A stretch of 64,000 nucleotides of DNA from GCF_054482595.1 NZ_CM137008.1, one strand, 5' to 3'. Shown: positions 46,816 through 58,262, numbered from the stretch's first letter. A program made the numbers and translations. Notes: generated from the letters alone by a model not told the origin.

Positions 46816-46846
46816 TAGAACTCCGTCTAATCTAGACGGAGTTCTA
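46816..46846. repeat. Palindrome TAGAACTCCGTCTA-ATC-TAGACGGAGTTCTA downstream of acnB; related copy at 58007-58040
   Basis: Perfect 14-bp inverted repeat with 3-nt spacer; a near-copy abuts the start of IS66 orf1 at 58007-58040. Confidence 0.45.
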
Positions 46847-46989
46847 TTGTATTGATGGCTTTGGTAGAAGCGTAAGTGTACAGCGAGAGCTGTATTGACA
46901 GGAATGCGTTATTCAGTTGGCAGTGTATTGCGCAGGGGGAGCCGTTCGCTGACGTAAGCGGCTCGTCAGAACCGTATTGATATTTACTG

Positions 46990-47531
46990 AGCGGTCAGTT
47001 CAACTTTCCAGGGCAACAGATCACGTACCCGGTTTGCCGGCCAGTCCTGGATATGTTCAATGACGTAACGCAGCCATTTTCTGGCTCCTCATTGTTCAGA
47101 CGGCATGTGCCGATCAGCGAGTACAACACCGCCGCATGTTCGCCACCGTTGTCGGAACCCACGAAGAGCCAGTTTTTCCGGCCTACGGCCACTCCCCGTA
47201 AGGCGTTCTCTGCGATGTTGTTGTCGATTTCCACCCAGCCATTGCTGCAGTACACATTCAGGCCATCCCACTGTTTCAGCAGGTATGCGAACGCTTTTGC
47301 CGTATCCGAGTGACGCGACAGTGTTTTCATCTGAGTCTGTATCCAGTCATACAGTGACTGCATCAGTGGCGCAGCTCTGGCTTTTCTTGCTGCCAGACGC
47401 TGTTCTGCTGAACATCCCCGGACTTCTGCCTCGGTGGCATACAGTTCACCGATACGCTGCAGGGCTTCCGTGGTGATGTCGGTTGGCACTCTTACATGCA
47501 CATCGTGGATTCTTCTCCGGGAATGAGCCAT
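46990..47531 (-). pseudogene. IS66-family transposase TnpC, C-terminal fragment with frameshift near the 3-prime end
   Basis: [50 protein letters not shown]... matches the TnpC C-terminal half; the true C-terminus is in another frame. Confidence 0.7.
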
Positions 47532-47997
47532 ACACGCGGCTTCCGTTACTCTGCCGGATTCGTATAACGCCTAAGCATCGGCCTGAAGCACACCACAAAG
47601 ACTGGCCTTCAGGCTGTACACGCAGCCAAAGCGTTTATCGTTGAACACCACATTTTTCTGGCTGATGTCCCATTCTTCACGCAGCATAGCAATCAGTTGT
47701 GGTGTGCAGGTAAGCAGCAAGCGAAAAGGCAGTTCAAAACTGGTGACGTAATCCACATTCAGCAGGGCAATACGCAGCAGTTCTTCTGGCCCTGCCTCTG
47801 TCTGCCGACACTCCTCCAGAACATCCTGCTACTGCCGACGAAGATATGGAGATTCATTCAATTCTGTAAAACCGTATTTATCCGCCAGATAGTCAATTCG
47901 TGTACGCATACTGAAAAGAATTCCGTATAAAAATTCAGCAGACAAAACTTTATCAGCCCATAAGAATCAACGGAAGAGCCAGTAACGTACCAGATTA

Positions 47998-48510
47998 TCA
48001 CCTGGCTATTGTTGCCATAACGGGTAACATAAGGGACTGAACAGTTGTCTTTAGCACAACGAACTGATCTAATGTACCTGAACGGTCAACCTGAAAACAG
48101 CTTTCCAACCGACATTGTCCGCCAGCGTTTATCCCCGACCAGGTCTGTTGCAGTAAATCCACCACTTGCGAACATTCTTCATCAACTGTGGCACTGACCC
48201 GCAGATGGCAAATGCTCGCCTGGCTGAGCAGCAACAGGCATCGTATTGTTGCTTCTCCATGTTGTTCCAGCAACCAGCGTAATACCACCGGCGGTGCTGG
48301 ACTGGCAGTGTGATTACGCTCAGTAATATGTTCTTGCACCTGTCGGTAAAAGGCAGTACAGAATGCATGAATCTGTTGCCCGTTGATGTTTCCTTCTGCC
48401 GAATAGAGCGTGAAGTGGACTGCCAGCAGACGCGGCCAGTGGTCCACCGCCTGCTGAACAAAACGCCAGATATCTCCCGGCTCTGAAAGTAACGCTTCGG
48501 TTATTTGCAC
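47998..48510 (-). CDS. Hypothetical protein, third Rep-like (Gp2-family-like) paralog
   Basis: 170-aa ORF with pattern GNINGQQIHAFCTAFYRQVQEH...IRCLLLLSQAS resembling the ORFs at 29263 and 31511. Confidence 0.4.
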   Translation of the reverse strand: MQITEALLSEPGDIWRFVQQAVDHWPRLLAVHFTLYSAEGNINGQQIHAFCTAFYRQVQEHITERNHTASPAPPVVLRWLLEQHGEATIRCLLLLSQASICHLRVSATVDEECSQVVDLLQQTWSGINAGGQCRLESCFQVDRSGTLDQFVVLKTTVQSLMLPVMATIAR

Positions 48511-48659
48511 GGAATACTACTCCTTCAGACTCTGTTAAGTTTTGTTTGTTAAACCGGTGCAGACCTGCAGGAAAGCACGCCAGCACCGGCACTGTACGAT
48601 ATAAACATCCGGTACCGGGGATACGAATGGAATGACGAATACGCCAGAAAAGGGATAAC

Positions 48660-49827
48660 AACCTTCCTCATAATGGTGAAATCATTCGCTATCGGTTACA
48701 CGGTACGCGATGTCGCCAAAGGCAGCTGGATCGACGAATCCACGGTCACGCTACCGAAAGCGCCGCCGCTTAACACCCTGCCTCGGGCGACCAAAGTGCC
48801 GGAGCCACTGCCGCCGCAGGAAGATTACACCTTTGAAGGTTACCGCAACGCCGACGGCAGCGTGGGCACCAAAAACCTGTTGGGTATTACCACCAGCGTG
48901 CACTACATGGCAGACGTTGAGGACTACGTGGTTAAAATTATCGAACGCGACCTGCTGCCGAAATACCCGAGCATCGACGGCGTGGTCGACTTGAACCACC
49001 TCTACGGCTGTGGCGTAGCGATTAATGTACCGGCCGCCGTGGTGCCAATTCGCACCATCCATAATATTGCGCTGAACCCAAACTTCGGTGGCGAAGTGAT
49101 GGTGGTGGGCATGCAGTGCGGTGGCAGCGACGCGTTCTCCGGCGTTACCACTAACCCCGCTGTCGGCTACGACTCTGACCTGCTGGTGCGCTGCGGCGCA
49201 ACGGTGATGTTCTCCGAAGTCACTGAAGTACGCGACGCCATTCATCTGTTAACGCCACGCGCCATCAATGAAGAAGTGGGCAGGCGTCTGCTCGAAGAGA
49301 TGGCCTGATACGATAACTATCCCGATATGGGCAAAACCGACCGCAGCGCCAACCCTTCGCCGGGCAACAAAAAGGGCGGCCTCGCCAACGTGGTAAAGAA
49401 AGCACTCGGCTCCATTGCTAAATCGGGTAAAACCGCAATTGTTGAAGTGCTGTCGCCCGGTCAACACCCGACTAAACGCGGATTAATTTACGCCGCGACG
49501 CCAGCCAGCGATTTTGTCTGTGGCACGCAACAGGTGGCTTCGGGTATCACCGTGCAAGTGTTTACGACCGGCCGTGGTACGACGTACGGCCTGATGGCGG
49601 TACCCGTCATTAAAATGGCGACCCGCACCGGGCTGGCGAACCACTGGTTTGATTTAATGGATATTAACGCAGGCACTATCGCTACCGGCGAAGAGACCAT
49701 TGAAGAGGTGGGCTGGAAGTTGTTCCACTTTATTCTCGACGTCGCCAGCGGGAAGAAGAAAACTTTCTCGGATCAATGGGGATTGCATAACCAGCTGGCA
49801 GTGTTTAACCCGGCACCGGTGGCCTGA
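48660..49827 (+). pseudogene. garD: Galactarate dehydratase GarD-like gene, decayed (5-prime truncated, shift near 48680, in-frame TGA at 49306)
   Basis: Two same-frame ORFs (48673-49308 and 49327-49827) separated by TGA where GarD has Trp; homology starts mid-SAF domain; about 60 aa fewer than expected. Confidence 0.7.
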
Positions 49828-56450: not shown

Positions 56451-56495
56451 TTAACTGGCAGCACGCGTCAACCCAGTTGGAGAGTAATGCACGGC

Positions 56496-57191
56496 TCAGC
56501 TCGACGCCCTAACGGGCAAAGATTTCACTCTGACGGTACAGTGGCAGATGTTCGCAGTATTTCCCGTTAACACACGGGCAAGCAAGCCGGGACCTGCGAT
56601 ACCACGCTCTATCGGACGGGACGGCGCCGGTGCTTCAACAATACAGTCACATTTTGTACAGGCTTTTTTTACCCGAACAGTGCGGATCACTTTCAGGGCA
56701 CTGCTCACCAGTTCCAGCTGCTCAGCACTGACTTCCCCCAGATAATCCAGCTCACTGCCACACTCCTGGCAACAACTTTCTTCAGGTTCCAGGCGGTGTA
56801 TTTCACGGGGAAGATGTGCCGGTAACGGACGACGATGACGTGACTGTCGCAACTGGCGGGGAACCTGCGGGTCATCCTCTCGCCCACTGTAACGATCGCT
56901 GTCCTGTTCTCGTTGTTTCAGTTGGGACTCAGCCTGTTCAACCTCACGCTGCAGTTTTTCAGAACGGGTACCGAACAGCATCCGGCGCAGTTTTTCTATC
57001 TGAGCCCGAAGATGTTCTATTTCCCGTTCCTCCTCTTCGATCTTTTCTTCGGCGCGGGCCAGCGCAGAGCGCAGGAAGGCCTCCGTCTCTTCAACCAGAC
57101 TCAGTTGCTGGTCTTTCTGACGGAGGGCTTCAGCCTGCTCAGAGAGCAACCTTTCCAGTTCTGCAATGCGAATGAGGTATTTCTGACTCAT
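56496..57191 (-). pseudogene. IS66 transposase TnpC, N-terminal fragment
   Basis: Leucine-zipper-like N-terminus and CCQECG...CTKCDC zinc-finger motif, then frame degenerates. Confidence 0.7.
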
Positions 57192-57221
57192 GACCGTTTT
57201 TATAATGCGGTCAGGAGTTTT

Positions 57222-57572
57222 TTACAACATTGTCAGTGAGTTAAGGCGGGATGTTTTTGGCTGACGCCAGTCCAGCTTATCGAGGAGCATTGCCAGTTGC
57301 GAGCGGGTAATGGATACCTTGCCGTCACGTACCGCAGGCCAGATAAACTGGCCTTCCTCCAGGTGTTTGGTGAACTGGCACAGACCATCAGAATCGGCCC
57401 AGAGTATTTTAACAGTGTCACACCGTCGGCCACGAAAGATAAACAGGTGACCTGAGAAGGGGTTCTCATCCAGCACATGTTGTACCTGTTCTCCCAGACC
57501 GTTGAAGGATTTACGCATATCGGTAACGCCGGCAACGAGCCAGATGCGGGTACCTGATGGGCGTGAGATCAT
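57222..57572 (-). CDS. IS66 Orf2 (TnpB)
   Basis: 116 aa (MISRPSGTRIWLVAGVTDMRKSFNGLGEQVQHVL...). Confidence 0.8.
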   Translation of the reverse strand: MISRPSGTRIWLVAGVTDMRKSFNGLGEQVQHVLDENPFSGHLFIFRGRRCDTVKILWADSDGLCQFTKHLEEGQFIWPAVRDGKVSITRSQLAMLLDKLDWRQPKTSRLNSLTML

Positions 57573-58006
57573 CTTCCCCTCCCGGTCAGTTCACGGATCA
57601 ACACAGTGAGCAGCTCTGGTGAAGGATTTTCCAGTGTCATTTTACCGTAATGGAATTCCACATGGCAGGAAGCCGCACAAGCAACTGATAATGCCTCCGG
57701 AGCAGGAGCATCTGTAGCACAGAGCGGGGTGTCGGTAAGTTCCACTGGAACCAGAGTCGGAGAGGCCGGAAAAGATTGTGGTACTGTAGGGCCTACAATA
57801 GTTGGAGGTATTCTACGAGAAATACGTATTTCTCTTTGCCAGAGGCGTAGCCATTTAAAAATCAGGTTGTTATCAACGCCATGTTCCCGGGCCAGTTGTG
57901 CAACATTGGCATTTGGTTTCGAAGCCAGTTCAACCATATGAAGCTTAAATTCATTAGAAAATATCCGGCGGGTCCCAGTGCGCCAGTCTGTAGATTTATC
58001 CATCAA
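57569..58006 (-). CDS. IS66 Orf1 (TnpA)
   Basis: HTH-containing N-terminus (FSNEFKLHMVELASKPNANVAQLAREHGVDNNLIFKWL); overlaps orf2 start. Confidence 0.75.
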   Translation of the reverse strand: MMDKSTDWRTGTRRIFSNEFKLHMVELASKPNANVAQLAREHGVDNNLIFKWLRLWQREIRISRRIPPTIVGPTVPQSFPASPTLVPVELTDTPLCATDAPAPEALSVACAASCHVEFHYGKMTLENPSPELLTVLIRELTGRGR

Positions 58007-58262
58007 TAGAACTCCGTCTAATTTAGAAGGAGCTCTAATTTAGTCTGCAAGGATCAGGTGTTACAGACGGCACTGGCTTTACGTTTACAAACAGTACGTG
58101 ATGAGTATGAGGCTTTTTTATCTGTATATAATCCCTCATTCTGTAAATTGGGATAGGGCAATTTCACAATCATCCTCCTCCCATATCACCAGTATATACT
58201 GAGCCGTGTTTATCTATTTGGTTAAAATTCGCTACAATCCCATTTTCTCTTTTGGGAATATA

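Follow-up and report, generated by a model that had tools for sequence, protein, structure and literature searches.

A palindrome beside acnB and before an IS66 tnpA gene in an Escherichia coli island: a probable leader hairpin of the ISEc43/ISEc47 group

The stretch of DNA considered here, called the window in the following, comprises 64,000 nucleotides of one strand of NZ_CM137008.1 (GCF_054482595.1), with positions counted from its first letter. It covers a mosaic Escherichia coli chromosomal island composed of a CP4-like element, the genes GntR-amidohydrolase-MFS-citCDEFXG-acnB, remnants of insertion sequences (IS) of the IS66 family, agaR, malX, an enterotoxin gene, and more IS66 remnants. 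The subject of this report is a palindrome of 31 bases found at two places in this island: site 1 is situated behind the island-borne acnB, and site 2 lies immediately before orf1 (tnpA) of a truncated IS66 element.

Site 1 (46816-46846, plus strand) reads TAGAACTCCGTCTA-ATC-TAGACGGAGTTCTA, i.e., a 14-bp stem with 100% complementary arms and a loop of 3 nt, and constitutes the longest perfect short-loop inverted repeat of the 64 kb window. At site 2 (58007-58037), the plus strand reads TAGAACTCCGTCTA-ATT-TAGAAGGAGCTCTA, such that 28 of the 31 bases are the same as at site 1; the gap to the start of IS66 orf1 amounts to 0 nt (TTG as start codon) or 3 nt (ATG). Judged from the flanks, namely the TTGATGG that follows and the colinear leader that precedes the palindrome, the homologous orientation is plus for site 1 and minus for site 2. 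Allowing up to two mismatches, the 14-mer has four matches in the window, which are the four arms of the two sites (shuffled controls: mean 0.12, with none of 100 shuffles reaching four). The hairpin is the dominant structure in the predicted RNA folds of both sites (-27.3 kcal/mol and z -5.4 for 46800-46865 at site 1; z -3.1 for site 2). Searches with Rfam covariance models gave zero matches for site 1 and, for site 2, only a chance-level match to ClpQY_promoter (16 bits vs a gathering score of 42, E 0.45). The near-identical palindromes described in the original prediction are therefore real, and the limits proposed for site 1 are exact; the second copy does exist directly 5' of IS66 orf1, but ends at 58037 instead of 58040.

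The palindrome is a native part of IS66 left ends. In intact ISEc43, for which locus L002 served as the reference (2541 bp, inside traG, GTAAGCG at both ends, 8-bp target duplication TAAAATTC), and in ISEc47 (L003), it is found as TAGAGCTCCTTCTA-AAT-TAGACGGAGTTCTA at about nt 52-82 of the element, between the left inverted repeat (IRL) and the ATG of tnpA at nt 86. ISEc43 possesses one such motif per element, and none is found at its right end. Another six E. coli occurrences were inspected, all of which lie directly 5' of an orf1-type 'transposase' gene of an IS66 element; the E. coli loci sampled with the motif 5' of orf1 are L002, L003, L005, L006, L021, and L022. A match to the motif region exists in about 625 of 5426 complete genomes. 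Comparison with IS66 references, as suggested along with the original prediction, thus finds the motif in the same position in intact ISEc43 and ISEc47 and in all sampled E. coli occurrences, and none of these at an unrelated position. The palindrome probably represents a hairpin in the leaders of ISEc43/ISEc47-type IS66 elements, with the two copies in the window being left ends of different insertions and not the halves of one element.

The element at site 2 exhibits on the minus strand the Pfam order HTH_Tnp_1, TnpB_IS66, LZ_Tnp_IS66, and zf-IS66, i.e., the three genes characteristic of IS66, with a truncated tnpC from which the DDE domain is missing in this copy. Its IRL GTAAACGTAAAGCC at 58088 equals the terminal repeat GTAAGCG with one mismatch, as is typical of an IS66 terminus. 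Beginning at this IRL, the stretch 58088-56404 corresponds to nt 1-1685 of intact ISEc43 with a DNA identity of 93.5%; the copy is cut off in tnpC at 56404/56341, and its right end is gone. The ISfinder-style criterion for the same IS is a DNA identity of at least 95%, which was applied here as a threshold over the element. Since 93.5% falls below it, the element is, by its sequence, a relative (isoform) of ISEc43 and not ISEc43 itself. Elements of the ISEc23 and IS682 types resemble the window copy (match of about 93%) no further than 57671, within orf1, and their left module, corresponding to 57672-58088 (IRL, leader, and N-terminus of orf1), is a different, more diverged cassette. As the match stops at 57671, the element is mosaic, yet the homologous hairpin is retained. 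Outside the element, about 175 bp from its IRL, another perfect hairpin of 12 bp (ACAGTCTCCATT...AATGGAGACTGT, 58263-58301) is situated just 3' of a minus-strand amidohydrolase gene, of which it is probably the terminator.

Concerning site 1, homology to the core acnB (about 94% over the stretch compared) runs 23 nt past the stop codon (46747-46769) and ends at 46769, and it is here that the IS66 similarity starts. This similarity covers about 90 bp (46770-46858) and lacks the outermost IRL bases as well as all genes beyond the first tnpA codons. Directly 3' of the palindrome, TTG-TA-TTGATGG is found where IS copies carry TTGATGG, and the 46-nt flank on its other side (46770-46815) is colinear with nt ~8-51 of ISEc43-group left ends, with 26-30 identities in an anchored global alignment. 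The best references, L006 and L021, share 30 identities with this flank (z 7.9-8.5), a score reached by none of 5000 shuffles and by two of 5000 random 46-mers of the window; independently, blastn (28 Gb searched) matches the flank to the left end of L006 with E 3e-6. In local alignments, the significance is weak except against L006, such that the anchored global alignment is needed. The outer terminus GTAAGCG is not recognisable, which indicates a fragment rather than a complete end. The terminator known from the acnB of K-12 (GCCCGG..CCGGGC followed by T7) is not present after the island acnB. On these alignments, site 1 is part of a plus-strand IS66 left-end relic of about 90 bp that took the place of the native acnB terminator.

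It might be argued that site 1 is itself the native intrinsic terminator of acnB, its likeness to IS66 being due to chance or convergence: 70 nt separate it from the acnB stop codon, and it forms a strong hairpin (-27 kcal/mol) followed by UUGUAUUG. The core acnB, however, is followed by another terminator of canonical form, and the island sequence is homologous to the core locus only up to 46769; furthermore, the 46 nt upstream and the TTGATGG downstream of the palindrome are colinear with IS66 left ends, and a terminator scan makes no call at site 1. Such an origin is extremely improbable. An internally deleted IS or a miniature inverted-repeat transposable element (MITE), made up of site 1 and the adjoining GTAAG terminus, was considered as well, but the terminus at 46872 is part of an ISEc8-like right end and points in the wrong direction, for which reason this reading was rejected. 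The right boundary of the segment comprising acnB and the relic is placed at or before 46866 from locus L004, which is joined there to the 3' part of cbtA via a GTA microhomology. Because loci L019 and L020 share the right-hand junction of the window, the window's arrangement is considered older than that of L004.

The original prediction had also raised the possibility that an inversion or a deletion had split one IS66, the two sites being its separated ends and the tnpC fragments at 47531 and 56496 its halves. Both fragments are indeed found on the minus strand and in the order that a single interrupted element would give (N-terminal part at the higher, C-terminal part at the lower coordinates), but they belong to different IS66 subgroups at the DNA and the protein level. 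The sequence 46954-47594 represents the final 654 nt of an ISCro1-like element with 93.3% DNA identity, whereas its similarity to ISEc43 is about 70% and in patches only; at the protein level, this C-terminal fragment is 88-90% identical to the TnpC of ISCro1 and 49-50% to that of ISEc43. The N-terminal fragment, in turn, exhibits the opposite pattern in its DNA, and its protein is 95% identical to the TnpC of ISEc43 (aa 1-210; 63% beyond) and 42-50% to that of ISCro1, the two reference proteins being 51% identical to each other. Joining the fragments fails to rebuild a full tnpC, with about 30 residues (roughly aa 297-326) missing between them. Moreover, both palindromes are left-end features in inverted orientation, with the motif absent from the ISEc43 right end; an ISEc8-like tail with a right inverted repeat (IRR), 46872-46953, stands between site 1 and the ISCro1 tail; and a third IS66 (62104-63756) shares just about 32% identity with either TnpC. 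The two sites are left-end leaders both, and their derivation from a single split element is very improbable. An inversion that pairs the third IS66 with the ISCro1-like tail would fit geometrically, but was rejected at this identity of about 32%; no pair of fragments in the window rebuilds a tnpC gene. The features discussed are compiled in Table 1.

Table 1. Positions of the palindromes, the IS66 pieces around them, and the adjoining acnB in the window
Feature	Position	Strand	Remarks
Island-borne acnB paralogue with 23 nt of native 3' flank	44149..46769	+	Pfam aconitase B domains; ~94% identity to core acnB
Degenerate left-end relic of an ISEc43-group IS66	46770..46858	+	Approximately IS nt 8-92: inner IRL, leader, hairpin, TTG..ATGG start
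Site 1 palindrome, relic of the IS66 leader hairpin	46816..46846	+	Perfect 14+3+14
Last ~82 bp of an ISEc8/ISKpn24/ISEc22-like IS66	46872..46953	-	IRR GTAAGTG... and final tnpC codons; 79-84% identity to the ends of these IS; span confirmed by L023
Right end of an ISCro1-like IS66	46954..47594	-	IRR GTAAGCGGCTCG... and tnpC C-terminal pseudogene, aa 313-523; Pfam DDE_Tnp_IS66
tnpC N-terminal pseudogene	56341..57191	-	95% identity to ISEc43 TnpC over aa 1-210; frameshifted and diverged from there to ~aa 296
tnpB (IS66 Orf2)	57222..57572	-	Pfam TnpB_IS66; annotated by the Prokaryotic Genome Annotation Pipeline (PGAP)
tnpA (orf1)	57569..58003	-	Pfam HTH_Tnp_1; PGAP annotation
Arms of the long-range helix	58062-58072 and 57980-57991	-	Encloses hairpin and start codon; predicted
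Site 2 imperfect hairpin	58007..58037	-	TAGAGCUCCUUCUA-AAU-UAGACGGAGUUCUA in the tnpA leader; same as in intact ISEc43; Shine-Dalgarno GGAG within the 3' arm
IRL and upstream leader of the ISEc43-like element	58038..58088	-	IRL GTAAACGTAAAGCC..., outer end 58088; ISEc43/47 similarity stops there

On the sense strand, the 3' arm UAGACGGAGUUCUA of the site 2 hairpin holds GGAG, situated 8 nt before the AUG, and the 5' arm holds the complementary CUCC. In the tnpA mRNA, the hairpin would pair the Shine-Dalgarno (SD) sequence with this anti-SD and lower the translation of tnpA, an occlusion that should be strongest for transcripts reading in from outside the IS. Such an occlusion of the tnpA ribosome-binding site (RBS) by an RNA hairpin appears from our analysis to be the most likely function, with about as much to be said for it as against it. 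The SD window at site 2 is predicted to be paired with a probability of 0.90. Homologous hairpins in the same position are found in leaders of the ISKox1 type (TnpA 65-69% identical to the query) and of the ISEc23 type (58-59%), and compensatory double changes occur in these at 3 of 12 pairs. Locus L015, with a TnpA 40% identical to the query, possesses a hairpin of unrelated sequence which ends exactly at the ATG and contains the SD-like GGUGGA. The stem itself varies from two imperfect positions (ISEc43) to perfect complementarity (site 1 and the IS copy in L021); the assumption that active IS copies always retain a stem mismatch had to be rejected, as L021 exhibits a perfect palindrome beside an intact tnpA.

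In addition, the leaders of the ISEc43 and ISEc23 types are predicted to form a long-range helix between nt 17-27 of the IRL (GCCGUCUGUA) and positions +13..+24 of tnpA (UACAGACUGGC). It would form only in transcripts entering from outside the IS and could silence read-through. A search of the accessible literature for an IS66 leader hairpin found nothing specific, and to our knowledge regulation in the IS66 family is essentially uncharacterised. Going by the predicted structures, the hairpin probably acts as an RBS-occluding element of a conventional type, though one not described so far.

At site 1, no gene is left that the hairpin could regulate. It is the only strong hairpin after acnB, 70 nt past the stop codon and with the tail UUGUAUUG; the following TTGTATTG contains five T in eight positions if the stem is taken as 14 bp, and only four with the two extra pairs of the minimum free energy (MFE) stem. 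Because the native terminator has been replaced and site 1 is the sole strong hairpin behind acnB, a surrogate role may tentatively be proposed, in which the orphan hairpin would end or stabilise the cit-acnB transcript as its 3' hairpin or terminator; we rate this as possible, though somewhat unlikely.

Small inversions distinguish variants of the hairpin between strains and between IS types. The loop of site 1 (46830-46832) reads ATC in the window and GAT, the exact reverse complement, in L004 (4074-4076), L019, and L020, with flanks that are 98-99% identical. Between the hairpins of ISEc43 (58007-58037) and ISKox1 (L008, ~358-388), it is the inner 13 nt that are exactly inverted (T-TCTA-AAT-TAGA-C in the ISEc43 type vs G-TCTA-ATT-TAGA-A in the ISKox1 type), whereby a U.C mismatch is replaced by a G.A mismatch. 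These flips of loop or core look like hairpin-mediated micro-inversions or template switches.

The same inversions, between haplotypes of 98-99% identity on the one hand and between ISEc43 and ISKox1 on the other, could be taken as signs of a recombination-prone hairpin or cruciform that itself caused the rearrangements around acnB and the IS66 fragments, and the L004 junction to the truncated cbtA, with its GTA microhomology, lies indeed only 17-20 bp from the palindrome. The flips are, however, minute and confined to the hairpin, no breakpoint is situated inside the palindrome, and a 14-bp stem is short for cruciform-driven breakage. The junctions at 46872 and 46954 fall precisely on the IRR termini of IS66 elements (GTAAG...) and are therefore regarded as transposition events; nested IS66 insertions account equally well for the junctions nearby. 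A causal role of the palindrome in these rearrangements is quite improbable.

Taken jointly, the observations may describe an undescribed RBS-occluding element common to several IS66 subgroups (ISEc43/47, ISKox1, the ISEc23 type, and, in structure, more distant relatives), which would extrude in vivo, as the exact loop and core inversions between strains and IS types suggest, and the orphan copy of which (46816-46846) would have been co-opted as 3' hairpin or terminator of a horizontally acquired citCDEFXG-acnB operon that has lost its native terminator. That this combination holds in all its parts is unlikely. Several results count against the preferred reading of the palindrome as an RBS-occluding IS66 leader hairpin, with a possible terminator role at site 1: The SD pairing of 0.9 is modest, with 3 of 43 control genes reaching at least 0.87 (top ~7%); the consensus sigma-70 scan calls no promoter in the leader or at either site; changes on a single side of the stem comprise three events of the G.U type vs two of the C.A type, i.e., no strand bias; the IRL part of the site 1 relic is degenerate, with the outer ~8 nt absent or merged with the acnB flank; and the consensus terminator scan calls neither of the sites, which at site 1 speaks against a terminator role.

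As the G.U and C.A counts are similar, the covariation is of no help in distinguishing an RNA hairpin from a symmetric DNA operator. A dimer of the helix-turn-helix (HTH) protein TnpA (or TnpC) might bind the palindrome at the DNA level and autoregulate the transcription of tnpA, with RNA pairing being incidental; palindromic covariation and counts without strand bias would equally be expected in that case. HTH dimers typically bind operators with a dyad symmetry such as this one (14-3-14), orf1 carries an HTH_Tnp_1 domain, and the site overlaps the region in which the tnpA promoter must lie. In every lineage, however, the SD falls within the 3' arm, and between stem and start codon there are 0-4 nt; this holds for the sequence-unrelated L015 as well. 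This fixed SD overlap and start-codon distance therefore argue for a constraint on the mRNA rather than for an operator. The lengths of stem (13-15 bp) and loop (3-4 nt) vary, and no promoter is detectable around the palindrome. We regard an operator function as the main and a serious alternative, although an unlikely one, and RBS occlusion as the preferred function of the leader hairpin.

The wider island is rich in comparable remains. At least six IS66-family remnants are found in the window (32192-32293; 46770-46858; 46872-46953; 46954-47594; 56341-58088; 62104-63756), which include ISEc43-, ISEc8-, and ISCro1-like pieces and a distant type (~32% identical); none of them is intact, and none pair up. 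The sequence from 27730 to 64000 matches E. coli O157:H16 Santai at 99.99-100%. Left of about 27.7 kb, the arrangement is different: positions 8878-26400 match Santai at 99.8% with an offset of 1337 bp, and 1-8877 have no match to the corresponding Santai segment, such that an initial assumption of colinearity with Santai throughout the window is wrong there. The GntR-amidohydrolase-MFS-citCDEFXG-acnB module (35587-46866) is 97-98% identical in another strain (L018/L004), where it is found in a wholly different island context, with an ISCro1-like right end before it and a truncated cbtA directly after it. The comparison of these sequences suggests that the cit-acnB module moves as a unit bounded by IS66 remnants. 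A further hairpin, with 30-nt arms that are 90% complementary, is situated at 50989-51050, just upstream of a malX-like PTS gene.

Both sites are ordinary mobile-element debris in an IS66-rich E. coli island. For annotation, this explains the repeated palindrome, identifies the adjoining tnpC pseudogenes as unrelated fragments, and marks 46866 as the right boundary of the mobile cit-acnB module. The SD-covering hairpin at a fixed place (nt 52-82, with the ATG at nt 86) offers a simple testable hypothesis for the silencing of tnpA, and the loop flips constitute a small natural case of hairpin-mediated micro-inversion in bacteria.

Minute inversions of hairpin loops at short inverted repeats are described for chloroplast non-coding DNA. 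As there, the loop of site 1 is swapped for its exact reverse complement between close relatives (ATC/GAT); unlike there, the inversion is found in a bacterial IS relic, where a template switch or a recombination of the arms may have caused it. In IS10 and IS50, pairing makes use of a sequence near the IS terminus that is found only in read-through transcripts, and the helix between IRL nt 17-27 and tnpA +13..+24 would be the analogue in IS66, predicted only.

Most similar to site 2 are the left ends of ISEc43 and ISEc47, with an IRL starting with GTAAxCGTAAAGCC, a leader of 51 nt, the identical hairpin TAGAGCTCCTTCTAAATTAGACGGAGTTCTA, and tnpA at nt 86; the gene order tnpA-tnpB-tnpC is the same as well, and the DNA identity of 93.5% extends over nt 1-1685. 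These elements are complete, whereas the copy at site 2 is truncated in tnpC and has no right end. The relic at site 1 is far more diverged from them (~60-70% leader identity) and differs by its perfect palindrome and by an insertion of 5 nt before the ATG.

Among other IS, the 5' untranslated region (5'UTR) of IS200 tnpA contains an inverted repeat between the left terminus and tnpA, the 3' half of which includes the SD and which represses translation (Ellis et al. 2015, PMC4513863). The IS66 leader is similar in its stable predicted hairpin between terminus and tnpA with the SD in the 3' arm. Despite this similarity, there are clear differences: IS200 is an unrelated HUH element, and its longer stem-loop (nt 69-138) is experimentally validated and accompanied by an upstream terminator and an antisense small RNA (sRNA), whereas the IS66 hairpin is predicted only. 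In the tnp 5'-UTR of ISPpu9, too, a structure including the RBS limits the translation of the transposase (PMC8450116), and with this element the IS66 leader shares a secondary structure that takes in the RBS.

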